From: Nitrosomonadales bacterium
Lineage (GTDB): Bacteria; Pseudomonadota; Gammaproteobacteria; Burkholderiales; SG8-39
Length of the DNA: 64,000 nucleotides
Reading direction: 5' to 3'
NCBI GenBank assembly: GCA_036676355.1
Contig: JAKFDA010000072.1
Coordinates: 77,705-141,704 of the forward strand
Below, in pieces: positions 13,126-63,992 of the stretch (positions are counted from its first letter, which is position 1; each line of letters starts with the position of its first letter). Under the pieces are notes generated by a model that had not been told where the DNA came from, ran no database searches, and was given only the letters and a program-made list of their open reading frames with translations. The position numbers were made by a program, and so were the translations under genes.

Positions 13126-13126
13126 G

Positions 13127-45964: not shown

Positions 45965-46801
45965 TCAGGGTTGCGCCGCCGCCTGGCCAGCAACGTGCCG
46001 GCGAATCTCGCGCAGCTTCGCTTTGAGGCGTTGCCTGTTGTCCGGCCCGGCGCGCAGCAGCATCTTCTGGCCGGCCGATAAAGCCTCGAGTTCGGGATTG
46101 ACGAAGCGGTAATTGACCCACGGGCGTACCCGTTCCGTCTCGCTCTCGACCGCGGTCAGTTTGACCTTGAGCGGACCGGCCGGATCTGGCGTGGCGAGCA
46201 GGTGATCGATAACAGCGACCAGCCGGTCGTTGAAATAGGCGTCGGGATAGCCCAGGTCCTCGTATGCGCGCTGGAAAAGCGCGTAGTGTTTTTTGTAGAG
46301 CGCGGCCGCGCCCGCCACGTCGACGGATTCGATGAAATGCACGAACGGCACGTAGCGTTTGCTGTTCTCGTCGCTGATCACGCCCTCGCTTTCGCTTCCT
46401 TCCACGGTGAAGCGCGTCGGGGCCGGATTCACCGGCCATACTTTCGGGCTGGCGTGGCTACGCGCCAGATTGTCGACCGTGGCTACCGCGCGCATGGGGA
46501 AGTCGTTGATGCGCAGAAACGAAGCGACCGCGTCACGGCCGAGCAGATCGATGAGCGCGGCATCGATACGCTGATCCGCTTCCTCCAGCGTCGGCGCGGA
46601 GGCAGCGTCTTTTTCCGTGGGCGTCACCGACTCGATCGGGTACTTGATTGCCGGTGCTTTGGGCGCGGGCTGCTCGATTTGCGGTTCGGTTGTGGGCGCG
46701 GCGATGTCCGCCGGCGGTGGCGCTTGTCGCTGCCACCACAAGAACGCAGCGCCGGCGGCGGCGACTACCAATAGCGCAAGGACGAGTACGGTTTTATTCA
46801 T
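45965..46801 (-). CDS. DUF3014 family protein (N-terminal membrane anchor)
   Basis: A TM anchor and Pro-rich linker are followed by ...LLGRDAVASFLRINDFPMRAVATVDNLAR...YVPFV..., as in DUF3014. Confidence 0.65.
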   Translation of the reverse strand: MNKTVLVLALLVVAAAGAAFLWWQRQAPPPADIAAPTTEPQIEQPAPKAPAIKYPIESVTPTEKDAASAPTLEEADQRIDAALIDLLGRDAVASFLRINDFPMRAVATVDNLARSHASPKVWPVNPAPTRFTVEGSESEGVISDENSKRYVPFVHFIESVDVAGAAALYKKHYALFQRAYEDLGYPDAYFNDRLVAVIDHLLATPDPAGPLKVKLTAVESETERVRPWVNYRFVNPELEALSAGQKMLLRAGPDNRQRLKAKLREIRRHVAGQAAAQP

Positions 46802-46834: not shown

Positions 46835-47230
46835 TCATTCTAACAACCGGTCAGTCTGGCGGGCGTAGCTGACCGTAAGCATCTCCCACTGATGCCCGTC
46901 GGGCTCGTTCCAGTAGACATTGCCGAATTGGGCATTGACCTGCATGTCCACGGGTCCGTGCACCGCGCTGCGATACGCGATCCCGGCTGCTTTGATGCGC
47001 GCGAGAATGGCATCGAACGTTTCCCGGCTGACGCGGAAACAATAGTGATGGACAGGAAAGGGCTCCTGCGTTTCGACGAAGTCGAGCGTCAAATCGTCGT
47101 TGAGGTAGACAGGCGCAAAGGGGCCCATGCCGGTCTCCGCCCATGCAACACCGAGCAGTTCCGCCAGGCATTTTGCCGATGCAACCTTGTCGTGTGTCGG
47201 CACGATGAAGTGATCGAGATATATGGCCAT
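46835..47230 (-). CDS. VOC (glyoxalase/bleomycin-resistance/dioxygenase) family protein
   Basis: 131 aa from the ATG at 47230. Segments LDHFIVPTHD...HHYCFRV...FDAILARIKAAGI...DPDGHQWE are typical. Confidence 0.75.
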   Translation of the reverse strand: MAIYLDHFIVPTHDKVASAKCLAELLGVAWAETGMGPFAPVYLNDDLTLDFVETQEPFPVHHYCFRVSRETFDAILARIKAAGIAYRSAVHGPVDMQVNAQFGNVYWNEPDGHQWEMLTVSYARQTDRLLE

Positions 47231-47307
47231 CGCCGGCCTCCCGGTTCGCGTTCGGTGTCGATGCTCTACACGAGCAACTCCGCTGGAACGGCAGCGGTAC
47301 AACGACG

Positions 47308-48825
47308 TTATGGCGCGCCACCGGAGGCTCGAGCCAAATGTGCTCGCAGGGCGCGAAGGATTGTCTCCCTCTCCGCGTCGTCTTCCTCGGCGCTCGTCAG
47401 GACGCGTGCTGCGTCGGCCTTCACCATCGCCGCGGCCAGGTAGGAAACGCTATAAGCGCCTGCGATACCACCATCGAGCGAGTAGTCGACGAGAATGCTT
47501 CCATAACCGGGGTTGTGGCCACTCGAAGCGACCATCATGGCGCCTCTGCTTTGATAGCTGCCCTCCACCCGGATACCCATGAGCCAGGATTTCCATAACG
47601 TTTCCGAAAGAGGAAAGTTCGCCACCAGCAATGCAAGGCTGCCGAATAGCAGCAGCGCGAATGAAGTCCACCAATGATCGAGTATCGGCTCGTGCGCAGC
47701 ACGCCACAGCATCACATAACCGATCGCCCCTGTAAGAATGCCGAGGACCCCGAACATCACGGCGAAATTGCGAACCGGCTTCGATGAACCGACCTGCTGC
47801 AGGACGGCGCCGTACTCTCCGGCCGCCAGCGCCACGAAAGTGCCGCCGGACGTGCTCCTTTGTTCATCGAGGCTTACGGCCAGGTCACCGACTTTTGAAT
47901 AGATCCCGAACGGTTTCGTCTGCGCGAGGATGCTTTTGAACGCATCCATGATGCTCTGAGGGTGGACGGCCGCCGAGTCGCTCAGTTGAATGCGCGAGCG
48001 CTCCAACTGTGCATCCGGCCCATCGGAGCGAAGCCAGGCGAGAACCAGGATTCCTCCTGCTATGACCACCGTTCCCACGACCGCGATCGTGCTCCACGGC
48101 TGAAGCGACGGCGCCAAGGCGACTTCCATTCCCAGAAAGTGCGTGACAAAAGCCATTAATGCGATGCCGGCAAGCAGAGCGCCAATCGTGTTGATGATGC
48201 GACCGGTGGAGAGCTTGCGCCCCCAATCCGCGGCGCTATAAATGTTCTTCAGCATTGCCAGCCAGTAGGCATATACCAGCAGGACGATTCCCGCAAATAG
48301 CCATGACAGCACCGCATCGGCCACTTCCGGGCGGCCGCCTGCCGCGCCGAAAACGCGAAGCAGCGGAACGAGGACCAGGACTATCGCTCCGAATGCGATG
48401 GCGGTAAGCGCGACCTCAACCACGCGCTGATAAGGCGCAGGCAGTCGAAAGAAGCGGTCGCTGGCGCGAGCCGCCCATCTTCCGACCCAACTGAGATATT
48501 TGTCGTTAGGCGAAACGCCGGAGAGCATCAGCGCCTCGATTTCGTCGGGTGCGTACGTTGCGCCGATTCCCCTGGGCTCCAGCGAGCGCGCGGGCAGGCG
48601 CAGGCCGGTGCGAAACGCCAAGGATCCATCCAGTATTGCGAACGCCAGCAAAACCAATGCGGCGAGGAATGCGATCGAACTCGAACCGGCGAACCCGTTC
48701 ATGATTCCCGCAGCCGATTCGAGCAATATCGATATCGCTAGAATGGCTGCTACGGCCGCTCTGATAGCCATGGGAATCGACAAAGGCTTCAGCGGATTTC
48801 TTTCGAGTTCAGTCTTTGTCGCCAT
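47308..48825 (-). CDS. Uncharacterised polytopic (about 8 TM) membrane protein, last gene of the GT2-HlyD operon
   Basis: ATG at 48825 lies 6 nt after GAGGTG; the TTG at 48897 is an alternative. TM pairs are separated by soluble loops of about 70 aa and about 110 aa, followed by a soluble tail of about 110 aa. I recognise no family. By spot counts GC is visibly lower than in flanking genes. Confidence 0.5.
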   Translation of the reverse strand: MATKTELERNPLKPLSIPMAIRAAVAAILAISILLESAAGIMNGFAGSSSIAFLAALVLLAFAILDGSLAFRTGLRLPARSLEPRGIGATYAPDEIEALMLSGVSPNDKYLSWVGRWAARASDRFFRLPAPYQRVVEVALTAIAFGAIVLVLVPLLRVFGAAGGRPEVADAVLSWLFAGIVLLVYAYWLAMLKNIYSAADWGRKLSTGRIINTIGALLAGIALMAFVTHFLGMEVALAPSLQPWSTIAVVGTVVIAGGILVLAWLRSDGPDAQLERSRIQLSDSAAVHPQSIMDAFKSILAQTKPFGIYSKVGDLAVSLDEQRSTSGGTFVALAAGEYGAVLQQVGSSKPVRNFAVMFGVLGILTGAIGYVMLWRAAHEPILDHWWTSFALLLFGSLALLVANFPLSETLWKSWLMGIRVEGSYQSRGAMMVASSGHNPGYGSILVDYSLDGGIAGAYSVSYLAAAMVKADAARVLTSAEEDDAERETILRALRAHLARASGGAP

Positions 48826-48901
48826 GAGCTTCACCTCGCTCAGTACCGATTCATGGTGCCGTAAAAACGTTTGCGCGCAATGGCTCGTGTCTTTCAACGT
48901 C

Positions 48902-49804
48902 TCATACGGCCTCCGGCCGCAGCAGCTTGCTCAAGCTGTGGTAGTTCTCGAAAATCAAACCCCGGCATAAGGATTCCGCTTTGAGGTCTTGCCACAGGTT
49001 CTGCATGTGCGCCTCGAAGGCCGGAGGCTGCAGGCCGTGATACGAAACGCCGGGTTCCTTGGGCGGATTGCTGAGCACGCCCATGCGCCAGGGCAGCTTC
49101 AGAGTCTGCAGGCGTGCGACCGCTGCATCGGCCGCCTCAAGCTGGCGCCGCGGCGTGTCGCGATACGCCATCAGCGACACTTCCTGTACGTGCGGCACGA
49201 TACGGCCGAGGAAGTCTTCACCCCCGGCGAGTTCCTGCAAGGCGTATTTCGGATTCAGCGCGAGTTGCAGGCTCATCTTCGGCGGCATCGCTTCCCGTGC
49301 CCGCCGAGCGAGGTCGGCAACGCCCTGCATCAAGGTGGCCCGCCCGCCGGGTTGACGCCAAAGGGAGAGCGAGTGGGGCTCGACGTCGAGATGCAGACCG
49401 TCGAATACGAGATGACGCCGCTGTAATTCCAATAGCTCCGCAATGGTGCGGGGTAACCGGGTTTGCTCGGCCCACTGCGGCTCGCCGGCAAGGGCGAAGC
49501 ATGCGCATTCCTGCGACTTCAGATCGCGCAGAGTGCGCAGCGCTGGCGTAGCCGGATCGAGCAGTTCCGCGCGGGCCGGCTTGCGGAAATGAATCATCAG
49601 CGCACTGAAGCGATAGTCGAGCGCGAAGCGCGACAGCGCCGGGAGTTCGTCGAGCGACTTGAGCCACACCCACACCGCCTTCGGCAAGGTGAGAAATTGT
49701 TCGCCTTGCGCGAAGGTTATGGACGGCCACATGCCGACGCATAGTCCGGCAACCGCGCCTTTGAGCAGGAGGCGCCGGACGCGGCGCGCTTCATCCAGAC
49801 TCAT
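48902..49804 (-). CDS. Tat-signal periplasmic protein, possible (beta/alpha)8-barrel glycan-processing enzyme
   Basis: The N-terminus ARRVRRLLLKGAVAGLCVGMWPSITFAQG has a twin-Arg motif, an h-region and AxA-like TFA-QG. About eight hydrophobic beta-like segments alternate with helical stretches. The DVEP motif follows segment 4. The fold and function are inferred only. Confidence 0.45.
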   Translation of the reverse strand: MSLDEARRVRRLLLKGAVAGLCVGMWPSITFAQGEQFLTLPKAVWVWLKSLDELPALSRFALDYRFSALMIHFRKPARAELLDPATPALRTLRDLKSQECACFALAGEPQWAEQTRLPRTIAELLELQRRHLVFDGLHLDVEPHSLSLWRQPGGRATLMQGVADLARRAREAMPPKMSLQLALNPKYALQELAGGEDFLGRIVPHVQEVSLMAYRDTPRRQLEAADAAVARLQTLKLPWRMGVLSNPPKEPGVSYHGLQPPAFEAHMQNLWQDLKAESLCRGLIFENYHSLSKLLRPEAV

Positions 49805-50836
49805 TCATCCTCTGAGCGAGCGCAGCAGCAGCGCCACCGGGCTCAAATCCCACGCCACTTCAACGGTGGTGAACAACGGCGGCAGATCCTGCCCCGGATC
49901 GATTGCGATGCGGACCAATTGCTCGCGCTGCGTGCTCTCGAACGCCTTCTGGAATTCCTGCGGCAGTTGCGAAGCGACCGGCAGCAGCGCCTCGACCTTG
50001 CCGGTCAACACCTGGAAACCGGTGCGCACCTGTACCGCATCGCCGGGCTTGACGGTGTAAAGCGTACCGGTCGGCACATACGCCAGGACATAACTTTCGC
50101 CGTGGTAGATGCGCATGATCGGCTCGCCCGGTCGCACCACGGCGCCCGGCTGCACGCGTACTTCGGATGCGGTGCCGTCCACCGGCGAGGTCAGGATGCC
50201 GCCGGCGTAGGCGGTGCGCAGATCGTCGAGGCTCGCCTGTGCACGTTGCACGCTGCGTTCCAGTTCCGGCACTTGCGCTGCGATGACTTTCGCTTCAAGT
50301 TCCAGTTCGCGCAAATCGGCGACGCTGTCGTAAGCGTCGTGTACCACGCGCGCGCGCTGCATGATGGTGATCATGCCCGCTTCCTTGAATTTCTCCACCC
50401 TGCGCCACTCTTCTTCGGAGACAGCCGCGCGTCGCCGCGCATCGGGCAGCATCGCGTCGATGCGTCCGCTTTTGAGTTTCATCTCGCCCAATGCCACCTG
50501 ATATCGAACCAGCTCGGTGGTCATTTTTGCCATCGAGTCGGCCATTTCCTGCGACGAGAGTCGCGCGACGGTGCTTCCGCGCGTGACGGGCGAACCCTCC
50601 GAAACATCGAGCGAAACGATGCGCGCGGTATGTTCGGAGGCCACTGCGGCCGCTTCGCGCGTCACCATCCCTTCGGCCTTCAGATAAAGCAGGCTGCCGG
50701 CGGTCAGATCGATCGCCCACGCGCCGAGCCCGAGCAGCAGACCGATGTAGATGTATTTGCCGAAGCGCCCGCGTTTGCGCACACGCGGTTCGGTACGCAG
50801 GGCATCCACACGCTGGGGTTTACGGATGTATTTCAT
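49805..50836 (-). CDS. HlyD-family membrane fusion / periplasmic adaptor protein
   Basis: It has an N-terminal TM (YIYIGLLLGLGAWAI), a lipoyl-like motif ...VSLDVSEGSPVTRGSTVARL, a long coiled coil, ...ILTSPVDGTASEVRVQPGAVVRPGEPIMRI and a beta-barrel domain. Confidence 0.8.
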   Translation of the reverse strand: MKYIRKPQRVDALRTEPRVRKRGRFGKYIYIGLLLGLGAWAIDLTAGSLLYLKAEGMVTREAAAVASEHTARIVSLDVSEGSPVTRGSTVARLSSQEMADSMAKMTTELVRYQVALGEMKLKSGRIDAMLPDARRRAAVSEEEWRRVEKFKEAGMITIMQRARVVHDAYDSVADLRELELEAKVIAAQVPELERSVQRAQASLDDLRTAYAGGILTSPVDGTASEVRVQPGAVVRPGEPIMRIYHGESYVLAYVPTGTLYTVKPGDAVQVRTGFQVLTGKVEALLPVASQLPQEFQKAFESTQREQLVRIAIDPGQDLPPLFTTVEVAWDLSPVALLLRSLRG

Positions 50837-50851
50837 GGCACAGTCTTCCTG

Positions 50852-52114
50852 TCAGAACTGGTCTTGCGCGTTGTGGACCTTGAGCGGGTAATAGTCGTCG
50901 CGATAGGAGCGGCGCAGCACCAGCTCGCTCACGTAAGCGATCAGACGGTTGAGGCGCTGGTAATAGCCGACGTAGAACGTCTGCGCCGGCAGATAGGGAA
51001 CCAGGCCGAGCATGCCGGGTCGGCCATGAAACATCCACGCGACGCCGAACTCGATGCACTTGAACACGAAGTTGATCGCGTACAGCGACAGCATGATGAT
51101 CAGCGCGAAACGCCCGTAATGCGTCACCGCCCAGATCAGATAAATAACGAAGCTGAAGGTGAGGAAGACGTTGAACCAGAGCAGATTCAGAATCGCGAAC
51201 ATGTCGTCGAAAGAGAAATTGTCCGGCAGAGGGTTGAACACCACCCGCCATTTGCGCAGCCGGTGACGGATCAGGCTGCGACTCCAGCGCATGCGCTGTC
51301 GCCACAGCGCTTCGTGCGTCGCCGGCACTTTGGTCAAGGCCCAGGCTTCCGGCACGAAAACCACTTTCCATCCGGCGCGGCGCACCTTGACGGTGATGTT
51401 CGAATCGTCACCCGGACCGACATCCCAGCGGCCGACCTGATCGATGGCTTGACGCCGGAACGCACCGAACGCGCCCGAAACGATCATCAGCCAGTTCATC
51501 ATCGAGGTGAACTGGCGGCCCACGGTGATGTTGCTGTAGTACTCGATCGCCTGCATGCGCGTCAGCAGCGACTCTTCCAGATTGCGCACCTGAAGGTTGC
51601 CGCTGACTGCCCCGATGCGCGGGTCGGCGACCAGCGGGGAAACGAGTTGCGACACAGCATCGCGGTCGAACGATGTATCGATGTCGAGGACCAGAATGAT
51701 GTCGTGCTTGCAGTAATGCAGCGCGAGGTTCAGTCCGGAGACTTTCCCGCCGCGCGTGCCGCAACGGAACACGTTGTCGACCATCCCGTGCTGCAGCAGT
51801 GCGACGGCGGCTTCACCCATGCCGTCGGTCGAGCCGTCGTCCACGACGATCAGTTGCAGATTAGTGTGCGTCTGTTCGCGCAGCGACATCACCGAACGGC
51901 GCAGCCCGTCCGCTTCATTGAAACCGATCAGCAGCACGCTGACCGGCACGTTTGGATCAGCTTTGGGATATTTCCTACCGAAGGCCGCATGAAAACCGAC
52001 CGCAAAAGTCGACAGGCAATAGCGCGGCATTTCGAACAGCCAGAAAAACCAGAACACAGTCAGTACGCCCGCCATGTCGAGCGAACGCATGAAGTTGATC
52101 GATTCCTGCAGCAT
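50852..52114 (-). CDS. Membrane-embedded processive family-2 glycosyltransferase (polysaccharide synthase; PgaC/NodC/HAS/BcsA clan)
   Basis: 420 aa. Motifs VVDDGSTD, LDIDTS, GAFGAFRR, GDDSN and QRMRW (QxxRW) are present. TM helices flank the catalytic domain, 2 N-terminal and about 3-4 C-terminal. There is no PilZ domain. Confidence 0.85.
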   Translation of the reverse strand: MLQESINFMRSLDMAGVLTVFWFFWLFEMPRYCLSTFAVGFHAAFGRKYPKADPNVPVSVLLIGFNEADGLRRSVMSLREQTHTNLQLIVVDDGSTDGMGEAAVALLQHGMVDNVFRCGTRGGKVSGLNLALHYCKHDIILVLDIDTSFDRDAVSQLVSPLVADPRIGAVSGNLQVRNLEESLLTRMQAIEYYSNITVGRQFTSMMNWLMIVSGAFGAFRRQAIDQVGRWDVGPGDDSNITVKVRRAGWKVVFVPEAWALTKVPATHEALWRQRMRWSRSLIRHRLRKWRVVFNPLPDNFSFDDMFAILNLLWFNVFLTFSFVIYLIWAVTHYGRFALIIMLSLYAINFVFKCIEFGVAWMFHGRPGMLGLVPYLPAQTFYVGYYQRLNRLIAYVSELVLRRSYRDDYYPLKVHNAQDQF

Positions 52115-52120
52115 GCGAAT

Positions 52121-53476
52121 CTACTTGCTCAGTTGTTCGATGAGCAGAGGCACCTGTTCTTCGTTGAGTCGTGCCGCCAGTTGCACCCGCCGGCCCAGCG
52201 CTTCGGCCGCACGCAACTGCAAGCGTTCGATAAGCACATCGCATTTGTCGTTGGAGGTCTCCGGTAGCAACAGCAGGAGTCGCCGATCGACTGCGGCGAA
52301 AAAATCCGTCTCGCGCACCGTCTCGCGCACGAGGTCAATCATCAGGCTCTGAATTTGCGCGGCGCCCGCCCTGCCGAATTCGGCAATCGCATCGGCCGTC
52401 GCAGCGGTATCGAGCTGCAGCAACGAGTAGGGTCGACGGTAGCGCGTGCTCAGCCGATGGCTCATGTCGAGCGACAGGGCGAAGTCGCGCGGGGTGCGCC
52501 ATCCCGGCATGCCGTTGAGAAAATTTTCGAGATTGATGCCGGGCAGCCGGCCTTCCATCACCGCCGAATGCGCGACCTCGGTCGGGCTGTAGCTGAACCA
52601 GTCCATGGTCTGCGCATCGATCCCCCGCGTGGTAGCGTGGCAGTCGGCGCAGCGAAAACGTACCTCCGGCTCAGGCGAGGTCTTATGACAGTCGAGACAG
52701 AAGCAGACCGGGCCGGGCGCGTCGTAATCCACGCCGAAGTGGCGCAGCGTGCGGTTGCACTTCGGGCACACCAGTTCGTCGCCCCGCAGGAATTGCGGCT
52801 TCGGCGCTTGTTCGCCGCAGCGATAGTGGTGAATCAATGTCTGCTGTTCGAGATGCGCCGAGCCGCAGGCAGGGCACACATCGCGCGCCAGCATGCGGCT
52901 GCCGTTACAATCGTCGCACAGATAAGTACGATCGCTGAAATCGCGCTTGAGCAATTTTGCGGCCGCGAGCGTTTCCACGATCGAACGCTGATCGGCAATG
53001 CCGGCGAGCAACGGATAGTCGAACATCGACGGCCGATCCGCGTTCAGGCGCGGCGCGATATCGCACTCCCGGGTGATCGACAGGGCGAGCACCGTCAGGC
53101 CGACGCGATCATCATTGTTGGGAATGGCGGCGAGTGCGGCGCATTTTTCCCGCAACGACATGGCGGTCTCGATGCCGCGTGCAAGACTGTCCGGCCCGGC
53201 GGTTGGCGCGACAAAATCGGCGCGCGCCGACTGTGCGCCGCTTAAATCGATCACGGCGGCGAGCAGATTCCCGCCATGCGCCATGCGCGCGTAAACGCTG
53301 TTCGCATCCGAGCCGGGCAGAAGAATGACTGCATCCACCGAGGCGGACTCGTCCAGCTCAACGAGCGAAACGGCATGGCGTTTAAGCGCTTCACTGAAGA
53401 AGGGCGACAGCGTGCCCGCCAGGGCAATGCGCAAGACTCGCGCGTGTTGCGTTGAAACCTGGGGCGCCGACGCCAT
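52121..53476 (-). CDS. Multi-zinc-ribbon protein with C-terminal degenerate GGDEF domain retaining the RxxD I-site (putative c-di-GMP receptor)
   Basis: ATG at 53476 lies 7 nt after GAGGAG. Five CxxC pairs are present (CDDC, CPAC, CPKC, CLDC, CADC). The C-terminus aligns without gaps to the remembered PleD GGDEF core, with GGEEF->DRRLL while RETD is conserved 5 residues upstream. Confidence 0.6.
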   Translation of the reverse strand: MASAPQVSTQHARVLRIALAGTLSPFFSEALKRHAVSLVELDESASVDAVILLPGSDANSVYARMAHGGNLLAAVIDLSGAQSARADFVAPTAGPDSLARGIETAMSLREKCAALAAIPNNDDRVGLTVLALSITRECDIAPRLNADRPSMFDYPLLAGIADQRSIVETLAAAKLLKRDFSDRTYLCDDCNGSRMLARDVCPACGSAHLEQQTLIHHYRCGEQAPKPQFLRGDELVCPKCNRTLRHFGVDYDAPGPVCFCLDCHKTSPEPEVRFRCADCHATTRGIDAQTMDWFSYSPTEVAHSAVMEGRLPGINLENFLNGMPGWRTPRDFALSLDMSHRLSTRYRRPYSLLQLDTAATADAIAEFGRAGAAQIQSLMIDLVRETVRETDFFAAVDRRLLLLLPETSNDKCDVLIERLQLRAAEALGRRVQLAARLNEEQVPLLIEQLSK

Positions 53477-53861
53477 ACTGCTACTCCTCAACGCGAATCG
53501 TTGGCGGTGCGTTTTTTAACGCTGACTGGCATTTGTGCAAGCTTTGCGCCGAGGGGAGAAGCTATTGATTTACCATGCGATCCGGGCCCGTTCGGAGACT
53601 CGCTGTAAGGTATGGCGACGCCCTCGTGTATGCGTCGAGGACGAAACGGCGTTTGTCAGCAGCCGGCCACGGGCGCGCTTACTTAGTTGCCAAACGTGAG
53701 GAATCGCGGACTCGTTGGTTCGACGGGTTCACCATACAAACGTTTTCGCGACAGACTTAGTCGGATCTCCCCTCGATCGGTACATCGTTTCGCCAAGTAC
53801 AAACCGTTGAGGCACGAACAGGACAAGGCTACCCGCAGGCTGCTTGCGATGGATCGTCCGG

Positions 53862-55757
53862 TTACACGAGCGCGGACGGTCGCGGTTGCAAGTCAGGCGT
53901 TGCAGGTGCGGATGCATGCGCCTGCATCCATAGCTCGAGCATCATGAGTATCCACACCATCTCGCCGTAGTAACCGGGATGCTCATGCAGTTTGGACTGG
54001 AACAGATCATTGACGAAACGCGGTTGAATCCAGCCGCGATCGCGTATCGCTTCCAGCGACCCGAACGCCAGTTCATGCAGCGCGGGATGATTGGTGACCC
54101 AGCGCCCGAATGGCAGGCCGAAACCGTGCTTTTTCTTATTGATGATTTCCGGCGGCAGAAAGTCGCTTAGCGCTTTCTTGAAAAAATATCGCAGTTTCGT
54201 GCCGCGCAGTTTGTAATTCGGCCGCAGGCGTAGCGAAAAATCGACGAGTTGATCGTCGATCAACGGGAAGGCGGCTGTGGCGCCGGCGAGCGTGGATGTC
54301 GTGATGACTTTGCGCAGATCGTTATCGGCCAGCGTGTACTTCCAGTCGTACGCCAGCAGGCGGTTGATCAGCGCGCCGGCGGGCGTCGCCTCGTAAACAC
54401 GACGCTGTTGCTCGCCGGGTTGATTGCGATCGATCGGAACAAGCCAATCGTCGGTAAGCACTTCGTGCTCACCCAGACGACGGAGCAGGTTATAGCGTTC
54501 GAGCCGATCCGGCACCGAAGCGCTGGCATATTGATGAAAACTTACGGCCTTCCGTATCAGTGGCAGTTTCGCCGCTGACGATGATTGCGACAGCGATCCG
54601 ACCAGCCCGCGCAAGGGCGCCGGGACATGACCGTACAGACTGAGCGCGCGTTGAAGTGCATAGCGCGTGTTGCCACCGAACAACTCGTCGCCGCCGTCAC
54701 CGCCGAGCATTGTGTCGACGCCATCCTGCTTCGCGATCAGGGCGCAGTAGTAGGCCGGCAGCGCGGAAGAATTGCCGAACGGTTGATCGTAGGCCGCGGC
54801 GACGCGAGGAATGCCGGCCACCAGATCATCGGCCGTAAGGTAATGTTCGTGATGCCGGCAGTCAAAGTGCTGCGCGGCAATGCGCGCGTAAGCGGTTTCG
54901 TCGTAGCCCGCGGCGGCGAAGCCGATCGAGTACGTGCGTGCGCGTTGCTCCGTTACGCGCGTCAACATGCCGGCGATTGTGGAACTGTCGGTGCCGCCGC
55001 TGAGAAAGCAGCCGACATTGCCTTCGGCTTCGCGTGCCACGGCGTTGCGCAGAAGTTCGCGGAACTCCTTGCGCAGTGAACGATACGAAGCATCGCTGTG
55101 TTCTTCGAACACCGGCACCCAATGTTTGTGCAGTGCCAGACGGCCGCTGTCCAGATGCGCGGTTTCGCCGCCGAGCAGTCGATGCACGTCGTTGAAAATG
55201 GTTTGCGGCGCCGGGATGAAGTGGAACCAAAGGTAGTTGTAAATCGCCTGCCGATCGAATTCGACGTTGCATCGGCGCCCGACCGCATCGGCGCGATCGG
55301 AAAAACTGAGACGGGAGCCTTCGATGTGAAAGCACAGCGTTTCGCGCGCGAAACGATCGCATGCGAGCAGCGCCCGGCGGGTATGGAAATCTGCCAGGAA
55401 TACGCCGTAACTACCCTCGACGCTCTTTGCGGCATTGGCCTGATTCACGCGCCACGCTTCGGCCCAGCCGTCCAGCACCTGTTCGCGCTGTGGCTTGCCG
55501 GTGCTGCGGAATCGCGGTGTCCCGATCGACGCGATCAAGAGCGGGCCGCGCATGCCGCAGATCACCCGCCGCGGGTCGAAATGCAATTCGAGACTCGCGT
55601 CATTCAGCGAGCCGGCGGCATAGGCTTGATCGCTGAATCGCGGCGTCTGTCCGCCTTTGAGTTGAGCAAAGTCGATCCAGCCATCGAGCATCGTGCGCAA
55701 TGGCGCGGGAATGTCGTGCAGGGAGAGATTCGTCACGGCAGTTCGCGCCGTGCGCAT
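53862..55757 (-). CDS. Asparagine-synthase-family protein with degenerate glutaminase domain (synthetase/PP-loop domain intact)
   Basis: The PP-loop FLSGGTDSS and the C-terminal AsnB-like region are intact. There is no Cys2 (it begins MRTART...). The RLSIxD, NGEIYN and SD(S/C)EV motifs present in the two canonical copies are absent. Confidence 0.8.
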   Translation of the reverse strand: MRTARTAVTNLSLHDIPAPLRTMLDGWIDFAQLKGGQTPRFSDQAYAAGSLNDASLELHFDPRRVICGMRGPLLIASIGTPRFRSTGKPQREQVLDGWAEAWRVNQANAAKSVEGSYGVFLADFHTRRALLACDRFARETLCFHIEGSRLSFSDRADAVGRRCNVEFDRQAIYNYLWFHFIPAPQTIFNDVHRLLGGETAHLDSGRLALHKHWVPVFEEHSDASYRSLRKEFRELLRNAVAREAEGNVGCFLSGGTDSSTIAGMLTRVTEQRARTYSIGFAAAGYDETAYARIAAQHFDCRHHEHYLTADDLVAGIPRVAAAYDQPFGNSSALPAYYCALIAKQDGVDTMLGGDGGDELFGGNTRYALQRALSLYGHVPAPLRGLVGSLSQSSSAAKLPLIRKAVSFHQYASASVPDRLERYNLLRRLGEHEVLTDDWLVPIDRNQPGEQQRRVYEATPAGALINRLLAYDWKYTLADNDLRKVITTSTLAGATAAFPLIDDQLVDFSLRLRPNYKLRGTKLRYFFKKALSDFLPPEIINKKKHGFGLPFGRWVTNHPALHELAFGSLEAIRDRGWIQPRFVNDLFQSKLHEHPGYYGEMVWILMMLELWMQAHASAPATPDLQPRPSALV

Positions 55758-55793
55758 TGAAGGAGCGGCATTGGAGGCGCTGCTGTCGTCATT

Positions 55794-56555
55794 TCATTCT
55801 TTCCATTCTCCGACTTTCTGCAGCTTGTTCTTGAGACCGGGCAGATTGAAGCCGCGCGAATACGCTTTCTTCGCATAGTCGCGCGCCTTGTCGTAGTCCT
55901 TCAGATCGAAGTAGGCGAGACCCATGTTGTAGTACAGGTTGCCGCTCGTGCCGTGCTCTTCGGCCTTGCGGAACTGATTCAGCGCTTCTTTCGGTTTGTC
56001 GTCCTTGAGCAGTTGCACGCCGTAGACGCCGCGCACATTCGGATCGTCCGGGGCGAACGCCAATGCGCGCTGGAACCAGCAGTCGAGCGTGAATTCAGAG
56101 CCTTTCGGTTGGATGTTTTTTTCGCGCCGCGAGAGATTCGCCATCGCGTTCAAAGCACGCGGATGGTTGGGGAAGGCGCGCAGCGTGTAGGAAATATCCT
56201 TGCCGATCACCGCATTCGACGCGCCCTTGCGCAGATGTTCCACTTGTGGGGTGAAGTGGTAGTCCTCGACGATCTTGCGCCGCTCCAGCGGGGCTGTGCG
56301 GTAGTCGAAAGGGCCAAAGTGGTTTTCCAGCGAGCCGCAGGCGCCGTCCTGAGCAAGGACTGTCGGCACGTTGAACAAGGCGGCGGCGAAAATCACCGCA
56401 GCGGCGTGTATGAACTTGATGGAGCGTTGATGGTCGATACGTCCGTCTTCCGTTCGCCCTGAGTCGGCCGAGGAGTGAACAGGAACTTTCGCCGTCGATG
56501 GGTTCGCCATGAGCGGCTTTGCGAGGCGCTTGATCGGATATGCATTAACTTTCAC
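55794..56555 (-). CDS. TPR-like repeat protein with internal signal-anchor
   Basis: GTG start lies 5 nt after GGGAGG. A hydrophobic segment FIHAAAVIFAAALFNVPTVLAQD occurs about 45 aa in. The C-terminal repeats ...YYNMGLAYFDLKDYDKARDYAKKAY are TPR-like. Confidence 0.55.
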   Translation of the reverse strand: MKVNAYPIKRLAKPLMANPSTAKVPVHSSADSGRTEDGRIDHQRSIKFIHAAAVIFAAALFNVPTVLAQDGACGSLENHFGPFDYRTAPLERRKIVEDYHFTPQVEHLRKGASNAVIGKDISYTLRAFPNHPRALNAMANLSRREKNIQPKGSEFTLDCWFQRALAFAPDDPNVRGVYGVQLLKDDKPKEALNQFRKAEEHGTSGNLYYNMGLAYFDLKDYDKARDYAKKAYSRGFNLPGLKNKLQKVGEWKE

Positions 56556-57516
56556 GTAGACCTCCCGTCAGAGTGCTGGACACCTTGATCGCGGCGCAAC
56601 GCGCGGCGGCGCCGACGCAATAGGCAAGGGTCCTGGGACGAAAATCGAAATGATGCAGGGCGAGCTTGAACGACTCGTACGCAACGCAGACGTCGCCCCG
56701 CCGGTAGTGCCGGTAGCCGTGGCTGAAGCACAGTCGCGACAGCCGGCGATCCAGGCTCGCGCGATCGACGCGTTGCCCGTCCGCGCCGGTTTTGCCGAAT
56801 CGTTCGAGTGCGCGCAGCAGCACGCGATATTCGTTGTTCTCGCGCCGTTCCGCCGCCGTGGTCGAGGCGGCGTGGATGCGATACAACGCGAGCGTGCGAG
56901 ACAGCTTCGCCACGCGAAAGCGCTGCGTCGCGCGTAGCCACAGGTCGTAGTCCTCGCCGGTGCGCAGGCTTTCGTCGAAGCCACCGATCGCTTCGAACAC
57001 GCTGCGGTGCGCAACGGCTGTGATTGAATGAATCATGCTGTCGAGCAGCATGTCGGTGTAGATCGAGCCGGATGCAGCCTCGTCGATGTCATCCCCGCAC
57101 TCGTTGGACGGGCGCATGAATTCTTGCGCGCTGCCCGTGTCGCCGCGCCAGCGTTGCCAGCGGCCGTACACGATGCTGATGTCCGGGTGCCGCGCGAAGT
57201 ACGCTATCTGTGCGCTGATCTTGCCGGGCAGCCACAGATCGTCGGCATCCAGAAAGGCGATGTATTCGCCTTGTGCGATGGAGAGTGCGCGATTGCGTGC
57301 CGCGGCCGGGCCGCTGTTCGGCTGGCGAACGAGCCTGATGCGATGCTGCAGCGGAGCGATCGCGTCGGCCGTGCCGTCGGTCGAACCATCATCGACGACG
57401 ATGACTTCGAGATTCGGGTAGTCCTGCGCGAGCACGCTCTCCAACGCGTCGCGTATATAGGCAGCGCAGTTATAGGCGGGAATGATCACCGAGACGCGCG
57501 GCGTGGTCATGAGCAT
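56545..57516 (-). CDS. GT2 glycosyltransferase
   Basis: Contains VSVIIPAYNCAAYIRDALESVLAQDYPNLEVIVVDDGSTDGT and FLDADD. Confidence 0.85.
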   Translation of the reverse strand: MLMTTPRVSVIIPAYNCAAYIRDALESVLAQDYPNLEVIVVDDGSTDGTADAIAPLQHRIRLVRQPNSGPAAARNRALSIAQGEYIAFLDADDLWLPGKISAQIAYFARHPDISIVYGRWQRWRGDTGSAQEFMRPSNECGDDIDEAASGSIYTDMLLDSMIHSITAVAHRSVFEAIGGFDESLRTGEDYDLWLRATQRFRVAKLSRTLALYRIHAASTTAAERRENNEYRVLLRALERFGKTGADGQRVDRASLDRRLSRLCFSHGYRHYRRGDVCVAYESFKLALHHFDFRPRTLAYCVGAAARCAAIKVSSTLTGGLRES

Positions 57517-57517
57517 C

Positions 57518-58723
57518 TCAATGTGCTTGCGTGCGCGTTTGCCACGGCGGCATGCCGGGCAGTGTCGCGCCGTACAGTCGCGCGGCGATGCGGATCAGCT
57601 TCAGCCGCATGGTGCGGTCGCTCGAGCGCCGGCGTGCGACGCCGAGCAGCCCGCGCGCCAGAGCATGCAGCACCGCACGGCCCGTACCGCTGCGACGCAG
57701 CCCGCGCGCCGCGCTGTAGAAATTCAGCGGATCTTCCAGCAGACGCAAGACGAAATAGCGCTGCTGTGCAGCCTGCGCGATCGCGCGGCGCTCGTCGCGG
57801 GTGGGGCTCATCCCGCTGCCGTCGGTCAGCGCGGCGTAACTCAGTGCGTCTTCGATCATTTCCTCGTCCAATCCCTTGCCGGCCATCACGCTCATGCGAT
57901 TCAGCAAAGCCAGCCGCTTGAGCGAGGCGTCGCACACCGTGTCGCGTACCGGTATGAGGTATTCGCCCAATGACGTATCCGCACGCAGCGCGCGTCCCAG
58001 CATGCGGTCGTGATGCGCAAACAATTGCTCGCGTTCATCGTGCGCATAGCGCTGCGCGGCCGGTCCGCGCTCGCCTTCGTGACGACGGAACACGAAGGTC
58101 GGCCGATCGAGCAGGGCCACCGGATAGCGGCGTACCAGTCGCAACAGCATTTCGTAATCTTCGGAGGCCACCAGATCCTCGCGGAATGGCCCGACCTGCC
58201 GGTAACACTCGCTCCGCACCAGCGCACCCTGCAGTGTGGTGAAGCAACTGCGCATGAACTGCAGACGGAAACTACTTTCATCGACCTTGGGCCAGTGATG
58301 CTCCGCCGTGGGCTCGATCGCGCCGTTCTCGCCGCTGCGTCCCCAAAGATGGTTGCTCAGCACCACCTTGGCGTCCGGACGACGATCGAGCAGTGCAAGC
58401 CGGCTCTGGATCGAAGTGAGCATCGCGACGTCGTCGTCGTCGAATATCCATACCCATTCGCCCGTGACCATCGGCAGCGCGAAATTGAGCGCGCGCGGCT
58501 TGCCGCCATTCTCCTTGCGTACGTAGCTGATGCGACGGTCGCAACAATTGTTCACGCTTCGCACGCGTTCCGCGGTGTCGTCGGTCGAGCCGTCGTCCAC
58601 CACGATGATCTGATGCGCCGGCACCGTTTGGGCGAGCAGCGAATGCAGACATTCCTCCAGCAGCGCGGCGCGATTGTAGGTCGGCACCAGTACGGAAACG
58701 GTGCGCGTATGCGTGCCGCTCAT
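57518..58723 (-). CDS. GT2 glycosyltransferase with about 200-aa C-terminal extension (paralogue A)
   Basis: ATG at 58723 overlaps the upstream TGA (ATGA). Contains VSVLVPTYNRAALLEECLHSLLAQT and IIVVDDGSTDDT. FDDDDV occupies the DxD position. The upstream half of the 747-aa track ORF is an Arg-rich artefact. Confidence 0.8.
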   Translation of the reverse strand: MSGTHTRTVSVLVPTYNRAALLEECLHSLLAQTVPAHQIIVVDDGSTDDTAERVRSVNNCCDRRISYVRKENGGKPRALNFALPMVTGEWVWIFDDDDVAMLTSIQSRLALLDRRPDAKVVLSNHLWGRSGENGAIEPTAEHHWPKVDESSFRLQFMRSCFTTLQGALVRSECYRQVGPFREDLVASEDYEMLLRLVRRYPVALLDRPTFVFRRHEGERGPAAQRYAHDEREQLFAHHDRMLGRALRADTSLGEYLIPVRDTVCDASLKRLALLNRMSVMAGKGLDEEMIEDALSYAALTDGSGMSPTRDERRAIAQAAQQRYFVLRLLEDPLNFYSAARGLRRSGTGRAVLHALARGLLGVARRRSSDRTMRLKLIRIAARLYGATLPGMPPWQTRTQAH

Positions 58724-59637
58724 GCAGCGCCCGCCGGGGTCAGGTCGATAACGGTCGGCGCCGCTTGTTCGCGTCGATACAGCACGCGGTTGCCGTCTGC
58801 GCTTTCCCTCACCGGCACGTACCCGGCCTGTGCGAAGGCGCGCTGCGCCCGGCGGATGGTCGGCGTGCCGATTTCGTGCGGGTGGAAGGCGATGAGTACT
58901 TTGCGAATGCCAAGCTCGATCACGTCCTTGATCAACTGACATTCCGCCCCATCGACGTCGATGATCAGAAAGGTCGGACGATGCGCGCGCAGAGCATCGC
59001 GCAGCGTGCGGCCGGGCACGAGGAACTTGCGTGCGTATCGACCGGGGCTCGTGTCGCCCAACGTGTCGCTTGCATGCAACGTGCGCATGCCGGTAACGCA
59101 ACCGAGCGCGCAGTGTTCGAGTCGCGGTGCAATGCCGTTCAGCGCGAACGTATCGCGCGCGGCCTGCACCATCGCCGGGTGCGATTCGAAGGCAACGATT
59201 CGATTCGACCCGAGCCGACGCGCGCACAGCGCGGCAATCACGCCGATACCGCTGCCGACCTCCATCACCACGTCGTCGTCTTCCAGTGCGTCGCGCACCA
59301 GTCGGCGCTCCACGCCGGCATAGGTGCGTGCGAGCAGATCGCGTGCGAGTTGCAACGAATAGTGCGGACGCAACTGCACCTTCACCCCATCCAGTTCGAC
59401 CACCCGTCCCGTAGTGCGTGCAACCGCGACATGAAGTCGCGCGCTGACCAGATCGGCACAGCGCCGCGGGTTGCTCAACATCCAGCGGCCCGAGCAGTAG
59501 CCGCGTTTGGCGTAGTCCATCGCGGCATCCATTAGGCTGTCGTTGCGCTTCTCCGTCGCGCTCGGCAGACTTATCGCGGCACGCTGCCATCCATGAGGAG
59601 TGGGTTCGTCGTCGCTGTAAAACGGGATCTGGCGCAT
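58720..59637 (-). CDS. FkbM-family SAM-dependent methyltransferase
   Basis: VVMEVGSGIGVIAA is SAM motif I. FLIIDVDGAECQLI matches the FkbM-type K-x-D-x-E-G-x-E region. The start is assigned to the ATG at 59637. Confidence 0.7.
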   Translation of the reverse strand: MRQIPFYSDDEPTPHGWQRAAISLPSATEKRNDSLMDAAMDYAKRGYCSGRWMLSNPRRCADLVSARLHVAVARTTGRVVELDGVKVQLRPHYSLQLARDLLARTYAGVERRLVRDALEDDDVVMEVGSGIGVIAALCARRLGSNRIVAFESHPAMVQAARDTFALNGIAPRLEHCALGCVTGMRTLHASDTLGDTSPGRYARKFLVPGRTLRDALRAHRPTFLIIDVDGAECQLIKDVIELGIRKVLIAFHPHEIGTPTIRRAQRAFAQAGYVPVRESADGNRVLYRREQAAPTVIDLTPAGAA

Positions 59638-59642
59638 GGATG

Positions 59643-63390: not shown

Positions 63391-63992
63391 GTTGCGCCCC
63401 CATGCGGCGGAAAAACACACAGCACCGGACGGCCGTCGCGATCGGGTTGTCGACGCAGCGATTCACAGTGCTGGATGTGCAGCCATTGGCGCGTGCCGAC
63501 GCAATAGAACGTCACGGTGCCGAGCGGAACGGCACCGAGTCGGCTGTGAGCGTTGAGCGAACCGGCGTTGTAGGCGTTGACGCGACTCATGGTCCATTGC
63601 ACGCCCCGCTCGCGTAGATAGGCAAAGGCCGTATCCCATAAGCGCAGAAAAACGCGACTCGCGCGATGGGCCGGGTGAACCCATACGTCAAAGTCCCACG
63701 CCGCCTGCGTGGCCGGTCGCGGCAGGAACAGGCAGCGCACAGCGTCCTCCTCGTAGGCATCGTGCTTGAGCCAGAGAAAACCGAGCAGCATGTCGGCCTT
63801 GAATGCGGCAACACATTCCGCGCCGTGTGCCAGGCGCGCGCGGACGACGGCGGCCGGACGCGGCGACTGCGCAATCAATGCCGCACACATCGGGTGATTC
63901 TCAGTGATGCGCTCGACGCGCAGCGCGCCGGCACGAGGTGCAGGAAGCAGTGGCGTCGGCGCGACCGGTTGCGCCGTCAATTGATACTTCAC
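63387..63992 (-). CDS. GNAT-family N-acetyltransferase (tentative)
   Basis: WVHPAHRASRVFLRLWDTAFAYLRERGV...NAYNAGSLNAHSRLGA fits GNAT motif A/B spacing. The upstream end is close to the window edge. Confidence 0.55.
   Translation of the reverse strand: MKYQLTAQPVAPTPLLPAPRAGALRVERITENHPMCAALIAQSPRPAAVVRARLAHGAECVAAFKADMLLGFLWLKHDAYEEDAVRCLFLPRPATQAAWDFDVWVHPAHRASRVFLRLWDTAFAYLRERGVQWTMSRVNAYNAGSLNAHSRLGAVPLGTVTFYCVGTRQWLHIQHCESLRRQPDRDGRPVLCVFPPHGGAT

Follow-up and report, generated by a model that had tools for sequence, protein, structure and literature searches.

The locus lies within a 64,000-nucleotide stretch of DNA from a Nitrosomonadales bacterium (the window) and consists of five minus-strand genes, designated here A to E (Table 1). 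The five open reading frames, their spacings and the motifs quoted in a preliminary description of the window are all present in the sequence: A and B are 6 nt apart, B and C are 15 nt apart, the start of D abuts the stop of C, and the distance between D and E is 4 nt or 76 nt with the TTG or the ATG start of E, respectively. No outer-membrane gene occurs within the five-gene stretch. The module presumably has its own promoter in the intergenic region upstream of A, although no match to the sigma-70 consensus was found on the minus strand of this region.

Table 1. Coordinates of the genes and features of the locus (positions in the window)
Feature	Position	Strand	Remarks
Intergenic region 5' of A	53477..53861	(-)	385 nt; separates the A start from the stop of an Asn-synthase-like gene (53862)
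Gene A	52121..53476	(-)	451 aa; start ATG 53476, preceded by a GAGGAG ribosome-binding site
TackOD1 domain of A	52589..53089	(-)	aa 130-296; Pfam TackOD1 E 1.4e-46
Degenerate GGDEF-fold domain of A	52124..52492	(-)	aa 329-451; D-R-R-L at the GG(D/E)EF position
RxxD of A, R388-E-T-D391	52304..52315	(-)	GGDEF inhibitory-site motif; candidate c-di-GMP contact; R418 27 residues downstream
Gene B	50852..52114	(-)	420 aa
Gene C	49805..50836	(-)	343 aa
Gene D	48902..49804	(-)	300 aa
Gene E	47308..48825	(-)	505 aa from ATG; ORF 47308-48897 from TTG

The protein A, in which hydropathy analysis detects no transmembrane segment, is composed of a beta/alpha domain (aa 15-113), TackOD1 zinc ribbons preceded by a helix-plus-hairpin segment, and a degenerate GGDEF domain (AF2 model, pLDDT 86). 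The ribbons contain five CxxC motifs and one HxxC motif (C187/C190, C201/C204, H217/C220, C237/C240, C260/C263, C276/C279), which agrees with the definition of the TackOD1 domain (PMC5847659), and these ligands are invariant in 22 homologues, representing the most conserved residues of A. Pfam GGDEF does not match A even at E 0.1, while the profile search against PDB recovered diguanylate cyclases (3ign with E 5.9e-12, WspR, PleD, and DosC), and Foldseek with the AF2 model recovered isolated GGDEF domains (TM ~0.6, rmsd 2.3-3.1 Å). The motif G[GAS][DE]EF is absent in all 51 homologues analysed, and the metal-binding Asp has decayed in this family together with the catalytic motif. The R and the D of RxxD are each present in 41 of the 51 genome homologues; R418, the arginine downstream of RxxD, is kept too, with at least 90% conservation. 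In the alignment with the GGDEF domain 3ign, which has c-di-GMP bound, R388-D391 corresponds to RQSD and R418 to ERIR. The earlier description of A, a soluble protein combining zinc ribbons with a GGDEF domain that is catalytically dead but retains RxxD, is supported.

Pfam assigns the product of B to GT2 families and Chitin_synth_2; it is a membrane GT2 possessing, as was described previously, the full motif set of processive synthases (DDGS 92, DID 144-146, GDD 235, and QRMRW 273, conserved at 95% or more in 42 orthologues) and no nucleotide-sensing module; a PilZ domain was found neither in B nor in C using Pfam and NCBIfam. In addition, B carries a family-specific conserved C-terminal tail (R387 to V413). 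None of the NCBIfam equivalog cut-offs is reached by B: its best family-level match is PgaC_IcaA (E 2.8e-47), and the score of 161.6 bits against the cut-off of 422.3 rules out B as a PgaC orthologue. Weaker values were obtained for NodC (E 1.3e-25) and CelA (29.6 bits), and the profile search against PDB gave hyaluronan synthases (E 3e-12) and BcsA (4e-6). The nearest characterised relatives of B are PgaC/HmsR, NodC, and HasA at 25-32% identity (26-31% for plasmid-borne pgaC/hmsR), all of which use UDP-GlcNAc. The product of C is a HlyD/EmrA-type membrane-fusion (periplasmic adaptor) protein with an N-terminal anchor, as proposed before and confirmed by Pfam HlyD_3 and HlyD_D23; its NCBIfam matches (EmrA/MdtN/RND_mfp) are at the subfamily level, and all are below the cut-offs.

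Of 55 independent genome loci from Alpha-, Beta-, and Gammaproteobacteria, 49 have the genes A, B and C adjacent, co-oriented and in this order, and C comes after B in at least 49 loci. The three genes are co-located in 52 loci; an insertion separates A from B in two of these, and the order is changed in one. The other three of the 55 are broken off by the contig or locus end. The commonest junction, including that of A and B, is a 4-nt start/stop overlap. Apparent A-B fusions, which would favour direct contact of the two proteins, proved to be frameshift artefacts. The arrangement of A-B-C is far beyond chance, which is not the case for D and E. Since the neighbourhood survey revealed no additional gene conserved around the trio, A-B-C is probably self-sufficient, and a housekeeping precursor is expected; neither TolC nor another outer-membrane gene is linked to the module in the 55 loci. 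A hint at the sugar precursor of B comes from the Rhodomicrobiaceae loci, where an NDP-sugar dehydrogenase gene, nearest to UDP-ManNAc and UDP-GlcNAc dehydrogenases, and two genes of the SDR epimerase/dehydratase family are located between A and B. Genes for GT2 and a membrane-fusion protein are likewise found downstream of those for REC-TackOD1-GGDEF and REC-x-TackOD1 proteins, and a Pirellulaceae locus encodes the trio in another order: adaptor, TackOD1-only protein, and GT2. Therefore, TackOD1 is the constant partner of this pair, and the input part, be it a dead GGDEF or a REC domain, seems exchangeable.

The protein D has a conserved twin-arginine N-terminus, and its AF2 model (pLDDT 90.6) is a (beta/alpha)8, or TIM, barrel. 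Its profile matches 10yv_A, “Putative GH97 from Cellulomonas fimi” (E 3.5e-12), with which it has the LDVEP motif in common; the Foldseek matches to GH18, the PgaB C-terminal domain, and PslG are weak (TM 0.4-0.54), and aldolases score alike. Homologues of D form only 16 clusters, all of the Burkholderiales type, and it adjoins A-B-C in loci L002 and L059-L061. The export signal and the barrel fold ascribed to D earlier were upheld, while its general membership in the system was not: D is a clade-specific, glycoside-hydrolase-like accessory, and its association with the core is confined to a small clade of Burkholderiales.

We suggest, with a probability of about 0.6, that the three genes A-B-C make up a self-contained module for synthase-dependent exopolysaccharide secretion with A as the c-di-GMP receptor and C as the adaptor, in which D performs trimming and to which E does not belong. 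Directly established here are the gene order and its conservation, the domain identities, the folds, and the motifs. In the proposed mechanism, B would be an inner-membrane processive GT2. Its substrate would be one of the common nucleotide sugars, with UDP-GlcNAc or a related HexNAc as the most likely, and the chain would cross the membrane by a channel formed by B itself. With its anchor in the inner membrane, C would form the periplasmic conduit and probably dock to a TolC-type channel encoded elsewhere, by which, judging by analogy, the polymer may pass the outer membrane. In the cytoplasm, A may bind c-di-GMP at the inhibitory site that its dead GGDEF domain has kept (R388/D391/R418), and the TackOD1 ribbons would relay the signal to the synthase/adaptor complex, turning the polymerisation on. 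In this Burkholderiales lineage, D may be a glycosidase-like enzyme that reaches the periplasm by Tat export and there trims the polymer or clears it, similarly to BcsZ, PslG, and the PgaB C-terminal domain in their systems.

It is possible, although unlikely, that A represents a c-di-GMP-responsive transcription factor, the ribbons and helix/hairpin of which bind the operon promoter, the control being transcriptional and not allosteric. Zinc ribbons are often nucleic-acid binders, A homologues show weak Pfam matches to zinc ribbons, those of the TFIIB type among them, archaeal REC-wHTH-TackOD1 architectures are known (PMC5847659), and the operon starts with A, which has the 385-nt intergenic region upstream. 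However, the AF2 model has before the ribbons two helices and not the canonical three-helix winged HTH, and the 4-nt overlap, the commonest form of the A/B junction among the loci, fits subunits of a stoichiometric complex better than a regulator required in a few copies. Moreover, no conserved k-mer or inverted repeat exceeded the shuffled controls upstream of A in the 55 loci, which is a weak argument since operators may diverge.

Similarly doubtful is the suggestion that B produces a short oligosaccharide or a glycan retained in the periplasm or membrane (compare the NodC products and periplasmic glucans), with C working in the manner of Alg44 or BcsB, as a periplasmic co-polymerase or scaffold, and not as an adaptor for TolC. 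NodC and PgaC are similar to B in length, B has a match to NodC, no outer-membrane component is linked to any of the loci, and C has no partner ABC, MFS, or RND pump. Nevertheless, B is far closer to the polymer synthase PgaC than to NodC (E 2.8e-47 versus 1.3e-25), a periplasmic glycosidase partner such as D is typical of polymer-secretion systems, and the studied pairs of GT2 and adaptor export polymers, TolC being needed by BgsAB (PMC13438883).

We consider it quite improbable that the dead GGDEF domain binds no nucleotide and serves for dimerisation or as a scaffold, with the input being redox or metal perceived by the twelve Cys/His of TackOD1, or phosphorylation in the REC variants. In favour of such a role are the top conservation of the Cys/His ligands in A, the TackOD1-only partner of the Pirellulaceae GT2 and adaptor, and the loss of RxxD in ~10 of 51 homologues that keep A-B-C, including the Roseibium/Breoghania and Aminobacter clades, where Hpt, histidine-kinase, and response-regulator genes are located nearby. 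This loss also limits the main proposal, since c-di-GMP cannot be the universal input. On the other hand, R388, D391, and R418 are kept in ~80-90% of homologues while the catalytic motif and metal-binding Asp have decayed, which is the pattern expected with the I-site under selection, and the proven receptors PelD (as is generally known) and PssE (PMC4125290) show an identical one.

The preliminary description united all five genes into one secretion system, which is very improbable: the genes are co-directional and closely spaced, with no terminator-like site found between D and E, but E is missing from the closest syntenic contigs L059-L061, where a DUF3014 gene directly follows D, and from another syntenic relative, L002. 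E is an 8-TM membrane protein of unknown function, with eight hydropathy peaks and no Pfam or NCBIfam family; its start is more likely ATG 48825, which has a GAGGTG ribosome-binding site and is called in an identical public contig, than TTG 48897, so the 76-nt gap and the gene's own ribosome-binding site also speak against the five-gene system. E homologues form only 8 clusters (versus ~1000 for A) and occur in unrelated contexts, next to trypsin-like proteases or alone. The five-gene unit is rejected because other genomes do not show synteny of all five, wide synteny being found for A-B-C only; this reading is largely refuted, and E is probably a neighbouring gene outside the system.

Among the known systems, A-B-C resembles BgsA/BgsB/TolC as a minimal operon pairing a membrane GT2 with a HlyD-type membrane-fusion protein. 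BgsA reportedly senses c-di-GMP by its own C-terminal domain, whereas B is only 420 aa long and the predicted sensor, A, is soluble and encoded by a gene of its own. The similarity of B is to PgaC, NodC and HasA and is weak to the cellulose-synthase type (BcsA, CelA), and the gene order is bgsBA in S. meliloti versus A-B-C here. The likeness to systems of GT2 and membrane-fusion protein noted earlier is apt: the mixed-linkage beta-glucan system BgsA/BgsB of Sinorhizobium meliloti is controlled by c-di-GMP and requires TolC, encoded elsewhere (PMC13438883), and a TolC-like exit is used for cellulose by XcsA/XcsB/XcsC (Tll0007) of cyanobacteria (cited in PMC13438883 and PMC12430437). Alg8/Alg44 (alginate) and XcsA/XcsB/XcsC also combine a GT2 synthase with a membrane-fusion-type partner, but the Alg44 adaptor carries a PilZ c-di-GMP receptor, which C does not, and each of the two systems possesses outer-membrane and modifying components of its own but no TackOD1 protein.

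PelD of the Pel system and YdaK of Bacillus are degenerate-GGDEF I-site receptors acting in trans. In the Listeria Pss system, the same role is played by PssE, a dead GGDEF protein with RxxD that is a trans-acting c-di-GMP receptor for the polysaccharide synthase of its operon (PMC4125290). All three are similar to A in the dead GGDEF domain, the retained RxxD, and the synthase gene in the same operon. However, they are membrane-anchored, PelD having a GAF domain, whereas A has no transmembrane segment and carries the TackOD1 triple zinc ribbon and the N-terminal beta/alpha domain; on the synthase side they are partnered by BcsB-like proteins or GT4 enzymes, in place of which a HlyD adaptor is found here. 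With PgaABCD/HmsHFRS (PNAG), the module shares the PgaC/IcaA similarity of B and the weak resemblance of D to the PgaB C-terminal glycosidase barrel, but it is devoid of PgaD, the PgaA porin, and the PgaB deacetylase; in the Pga system, c-di-GMP is bound directly by the PgaC-PgaD pair.

Archaeal response regulators have the same Pfam domain (PF18551) and the same pattern of five CxxC and HxxC as A. In Thaumarchaeota, type IV pilus loci encode TackOD1 behind a REC domain, with a function described as “obscure” (PMC5847659), whereas in A it is placed between the beta/alpha domain and the dead GGDEF and is tied to the pair of GT2 and adaptor. In the literature searched, we found no publication on the A-B-C module, which is in line with the earlier statement that this gene combination matches no characterised EPS system. 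A-B-C looks like an undescribed variant of the signal-controlled polysaccharide-export machines.

The preliminary description had placed five genes, A to E (a zinc-ribbon regulator, a GT2 synthase, a HlyD-type adaptor, a Tat-signal barrel protein and an 8-TM protein), in one operon for a candidate c-di-GMP-gated polysaccharide secretion system. All five minus-strand ORFs are present where they were claimed, as is the close spacing, with 6 nt between A and B, 15 nt between B and C, and C and D abutting. A scan with the regulator alignment, taking one genome per species, yielded 55 loci, which were then searched with the five window proteins by tblastn. In 49 of these loci A, B and C lie side by side with their order preserved; A and B are split by an insertion in L014 and L015, three loci (L006, L048, and L049) are cut at a contig or locus end, and one, the Pirellulaceae locus L056, is reordered. 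D was found solely in L002, a 65%-identical relative, and E in none of the 55. The single A–E unit therefore has to be abandoned: the synteny results identify A–B–C as the conserved unit and argue for D as a clade-specific accessory of this triad and for E as most likely a bystander. The neighbourhood comparison suggested earlier, with the regulator and the 8-TM protein as queries, thus holds for A–B–C and fails for E, whose homologues lie elsewhere.

The triad occurs in Alpha-, Beta-, and Gammaproteobacteria, including Thalassospira, Roseibium, Breoghania, Bradyrhizobium, Rhodopila, Defluviicoccus, and Halomonas, and also on an Aminobacter plasmid, where its genes are annotated as hypothetical, GT2 and HlyD. 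Its genes most often meet in a 4-nt overlap. When the ORFs within 4.5 kb of A–B–C were clustered for 50 loci, no family occurred in more than eight of them, so that no conserved fourth gene was found; the flanking families (histidine kinase, response regulator, Hpt) are clade-specific.

Table. Positions of the genes and sites discussed (window or numbered locus; residue numbers where indicated)
Feature	Sequence	Position	Strand	Remark
Exosortase/PEP-CTERM-type exopolysaccharide locus	window	7785-32583	plus	
Wzz/GNVR chain-length protein	window	7785-9338	plus	
AAA_22 ATPase	window	11998-13125	plus	
UDP-GlcNAc 2-epimerase	window	13070-14290	plus	
FemAB-like/GNAT protein	window	14396-16210	plus	
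Exosortase EpsH fused to DUF3485	window	16232-17818	plus	
Two full AsnB-type amidotransferases	window	19028-20953, 23618-25540	plus	
Wzy_C-type polymerase/ligase	window	31246-32583	plus	
Four GT4s, AMP-binding enzyme, NDP-sugar dehydrogenase, polysaccharide deacetylase	window	within 7785-32583	plus	
DUF3014 gene	window	45965-46801		
155-aa ORF	window	46835-47302	minus	no Pfam match; between E and DUF3014 gene
E	window	47308-48897	minus	ATG 48825 the likelier start
D	window	48902-49804	minus	
C	window	49805-50836	minus	
C, R18	window	50783-50785		short cytoplasmic N-tail
B	window	50852-52114	minus	
B, cytoplasmic C-tail	window	50852-50956		residues 386-420
B, catalytic motifs	protein B	DDGS 92, DID 144-146, GDD 235, QRMRW 273	minus	residue numbers
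A	window	52121-53476	minus	ATG 53476 with GAGGAG 5' of start
Wzx-type cluster	window	53862-63420	minus	directly upstream of A
Asn_synthase-domain protein	window	53862-55757	minus	Wzx-type cluster
GT4, Polysacc_synt_3 flippase, three GT2s, small TPR protein	window	within 53862-63420	minus	Wzx-type cluster
Three nucleotide-sugar genes	L015	9167-12632		between regulator and GT2
Adaptor, TackOD1-only protein, GT2	L056	5990-9757		Pirellulaceae MAG
E homologue with two protease genes	L057	7333-11470		soil-metagenome contig
Lone TackOD1-GGDEF protein	L066	5584-6966		Aeromonas caviae plasmid pKAM345_3

The first member of the triad is the regulator. TackOD1, a domain of about 190 aa, is defined by five CxxC plus one HxxC motif, and its function was termed obscure in 2018 (PMC5847659, the one paper mentioning the domain in the literature searched). 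Residues 130-296 of A match it (PF18551, E 1.4e-46) with 158.9 bits, far above the Pfam gathering cut-off of 32, and the 12 Cys/His ligands of the five CxxC and the HxxC are invariant in 22 homologues. The Pfam GGDEF model (PF00990) gives no match to A reaching E 0.1. The profile of the A family nevertheless matches diguanylate cyclases in the PDB over residues ~309-421 (3ign, E 5.9e-12; also WspR, DosC, and PleD), and the AlphaFold2 model (pLDDT 86) superposes on isolated GGDEF domains in Foldseek with TM ~0.6 and an rmsd of 2.3-3.1 Å. The position of GG(D/E)EF is occupied in A by D-R-R-L, and the active-site motif is absent from all 51 genome homologues; together with the sub-threshold Pfam score, this marks A as a protein with the GGDEF fold that is not a diguanylate cyclase. 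A does retain the RxxD motif characteristic of degenerate-GGDEF I-site receptors of the PelD/PssE/YdaK type, with R388 and D391 each kept in 41 of the 51 homologues. R418, 27 residues past RxxD, is at least 90% conserved, and its counterpart in the alignment with 3ign, a GGDEF domain with c-di-GMP bound, is the Arg of “ERIR”; we take R418 to correspond to R390 of PleD. Profile searches, modelling and homologue counts hence bear out the original view of A as a zinc-ribbon protein with a dead GGDEF domain that keeps RxxD. Residues 1-113 are modelled as a beta/alpha domain, for which none of five representatives gave a Pfam match even at E ≤1; judging from this fold and the “DAVILLPG” strand, it may be a pseudo-receiver. 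With 1074 clusters (50% identity, E ≤1e-30) the regulator family is a large one, spread over rhizobia-related, marine, and wastewater bacteria and plasmids; in public records its members are called just “hypothetical” or “TackOD1 domain-containing”. A protein search also located a member in Pseudazoarcus.

The second member, B, has the features of processive membrane GT2 synthases of the BcsA/PgaC/NodC/HAS/Alg8 type, that is, a GT-A domain between TM helices that bears D, DxD, a catalytic base of the (T/G)ED type and QxxRW. The motif set attributed to it earlier is complete, with conservation of at least 95% among 42 orthologues; hydrophobic segments lie towards the C-terminus, at 306-357, and Pfam reports GT2 and Chitin_synth_2. 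B is not an orthologue of a characterised synthase by NCBIfam scores: PgaC/IcaA (TIGR03937) is its best family match with 161.6 bits (cut-off 422.3), followed by NodC (TIGR04242) with 90.3 (cut-off 550) and CelA with 29.6 (cut-off 699.1). Their usual partners are likewise missing: no PgaA/B/D-like genes occur in the operon or the conserved neighbourhood of the triad, no nodA or nodB lies near B, and neither BcsB nor a PilZ domain of the BcsA/CelA type was found with it. Pfam thus agrees with the reported absence of PilZ from the synthase, and adaptor C lacks this domain as well. In the PDB, B matches hyaluronan synthases (E 3e-12) and BcsA (E 4e-6), and among plasmid proteins B is closest to orthologues from triads of the same type (up to 39% identity), then to PgaC/HmsR (26-31%), NodC (28-32%), and HasA (25.6%).

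Protein C is a membrane-fusion protein of the HlyD/EmrA type (Pfam HlyD_3, E 3.3e-12; HlyD_D23, E 1.4e-9; Biotin_lipoyl), a type recognised by an N-terminal anchor, lipoyl/barrel-sandwich halves around an alpha-hairpin and a following beta-barrel. It scores under every NCBIfam subfamily and equivalog cut-off and can therefore be assigned to the superfamily only. No linked outer-membrane-factor gene occurs among the window ORFs examined or in the 55 loci.

Comparison of the variants shows which part of the regulator stays constant. Relatives with REC-TackOD1-GGDEF and REC-x-TackOD1 architectures are also followed by the GT2 and the adaptor. RxxD is lost (“YFGESA...”) in the Roseibium/Breoghania loci L040, L042-L045, L047, and L050, which keep the GT2 and the adaptor and where a hybrid histidine kinase, a response regulator and an Hpt protein adjoin the module; in L064 a true REC is fused to the regulator, and Hpt, histidine-kinase, and response-regulator genes are nearby. 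This suggests that in these clades and in L064 c-di-GMP input was replaced by phosphorelay input. In the planctomycete version (L056) the order is adaptor, TackOD1-only protein, GT2, and no GGDEF domain is present: the 283-aa protein has an N-terminal domain that matches no family and, of TackOD1, the zinc-ribbon part alone, and the 544-aa HlyD-type adaptor carries a long N-terminal cytoplasmic extension. Judging from these three kinds of variant, TackOD1 is the invariant partner of synthase and adaptor, and dead GGDEF and REC seem to behave as exchangeable input modules. The regulator type exists outside the triad too, as shown by a lone TackOD1-GGDEF protein on a mobilizable 29-kb plasmid (L066) with no GT2 or adaptor nearby; its annotation as an active “diguanylate cyclase” is doubtful, SEEIL standing in place of GGEEF, with RDTD kept.

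The insertion in L014 and L015 (Rhodomicrobiaceae MAGs) consists of an NDP-sugar dehydrogenase nearest to UDP-ManNAc/UDP-GlcNAc dehydrogenases and two genes of the SDR epimerase/dehydratase family. Taken together with the nearest relatives of B, it leads us to infer a HexNAc-type substrate, and it hints at a polymer containing aminouronic acid in that clade.

We propose that c-di-GMP would bind the candidate I-site of A, which, via TackOD1, would switch on B at the inner membrane; B would polymerise and translocate the chain, C would provide the periplasmic conduit, probably recruiting TolC, and D would trim the polymer in the periplasm. Candidate docking sites for A are the cytoplasmic C-tail of B, where R387, R390, E397, S403, D406, P410, and V413 are at least 95% conserved in orthologues, and the N-tail of C, whose R18 is at least 90% conserved. 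PelD is a precedent for a dead-GGDEF I-site receptor. PssE is another (PMC4125290), BgsA/BgsB require TolC (PMC13438883), and the cyanobacterial Xcs system is described, where PMC13438883 and PMC12430437 cite it, with a HlyD-like and a TolC-like partner. The main rival explanation is that A acts as a transcription factor. A conserved operator upstream of A, which would speak for this, was not found in 55 upstream regions, k-mer and inverted-repeat counts being at or only slightly above those of shuffled controls; as operators may diverge, this speaks only weakly against the rival. Direct contact between A and B would have been argued by gene fusions. Two seeming fusions (L034 and L041) run in one frame without a stop, but translation past the LLVVLP segment gives out-of-frame Arg/Gly-rich junk, and they were set aside as frameshift artefacts or pseudogenes. 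A terminator-like site at 52333-52310 was also discarded: it lies within the coding region of A, and such sites are fewer than in shuffles.

D carries a Tat-export signal (VRRLLLKG...ITFA-QG) with the twin-arginine motif, hydrophobic region and AxA-type cleavage site, and most of the 12 homologues with an N-terminus keep RR (one reads SRRATL). It is modelled by AlphaFold2 as a (beta/alpha)8 barrel (pLDDT 90.6) and matches no Pfam family; its family profile finds the PDB entry 10yv_A, “Putative GH97 from Cellulomonas fimi” (E 3.5e-12), with the LDVEP motif common to both. Foldseek matches are weak (GH18 chitinases, GH153, the PgaB C-terminal domain, and PslG; TM 0.4-0.54). FDGLHLDVE resembles the GH18 motif DGxDxDWE, but TM-scores are low and Pfam GH18 is absent, and we retain this assignment as a lead only. 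The conserved D140-x-E142 is no more than a candidate for the catalytic pair. The D family has 16 clusters, and those with a named source all belong to Burkholderiales.

E, a protein with eight hydropathy peaks and without family assignment, was rejected as a system component on synteny and probably has nothing to do with the synthase module. Its start is more likely ATG 48825 than 48897, given the GAGGTG upstream and the fact that in an identical public contig the gene is called from there; this leaves a D-E gap of 76 nt. Its family has eight clusters only, with homologues either 3' of two trypsin-like protease genes or alone; in L057 the E homologue is directly 3' of two secreted ones, with a 1-nt overlap. 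E and the 155-aa ORF separate D from the DUF3014 gene in the window. Both are missing from the syntenic loci L059-L061, which read Asn-synthase-like, TackOD1, GT2, adaptor, D, DUF3014, and they therefore look like a two-gene insertion.

Two further polysaccharide loci, of the exosortase/PEP-CTERM and Wzx types, lie in the window, which belongs to an uncultured Burkholderiales-type genome. The Asn_synthase protein of the Wzx-type cluster has no Pfam glutamine-amidotransferase match, unlike both AsnB copies of the exosortase locus. In L059-L061 the same succession of GT2, TPR, and Asn_synthase genes stands ahead of the TackOD1 module. The two loci accompany A–D only in close Burkholderiales relatives, and in the clustering of 50 loci they did not recur elsewhere; a link with A–D was rejected on this ground, and we treat them as separate systems.

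All parts of the module are of known kinds; what is new is the way they are combined and the role that this implies for TackOD1, and the novelty claimed for the combination stands, as no description of such a module was found in the literature searched. A bolder reading than the mechanism proposed above, to which we give a probability of only about 0.35, is that TackOD1 serves as a dedicated adaptor domain through which different cytoplasmic inputs (c-di-GMP via a fossil GGDEF I-site, or REC phosphorylation) are coupled to a GT2-adaptor(-TolC) machine, and that together they represent a distinct and widespread class of synthase-dependent exopolysaccharide system with a HexNAc-type polymer.

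The principal effectors of biofilm formation driven by c-di-GMP are the synthase-dependent exopolysaccharide systems (cellulose, PNAG, alginate, Pel and, more recently, mixed-linkage glucan), and each newly found one has coupled signal to polymerisation differently. The module offers a function for TackOD1 that can be tested; if the bolder reading is true, it would be the first for this domain, which archaeal response regulators share. The three-gene unit is compact, and its transfer into a host could reveal a new polymer; lineages that keep the c-di-GMP site and those that seem to have phosphorelay input instead offer a natural comparison.
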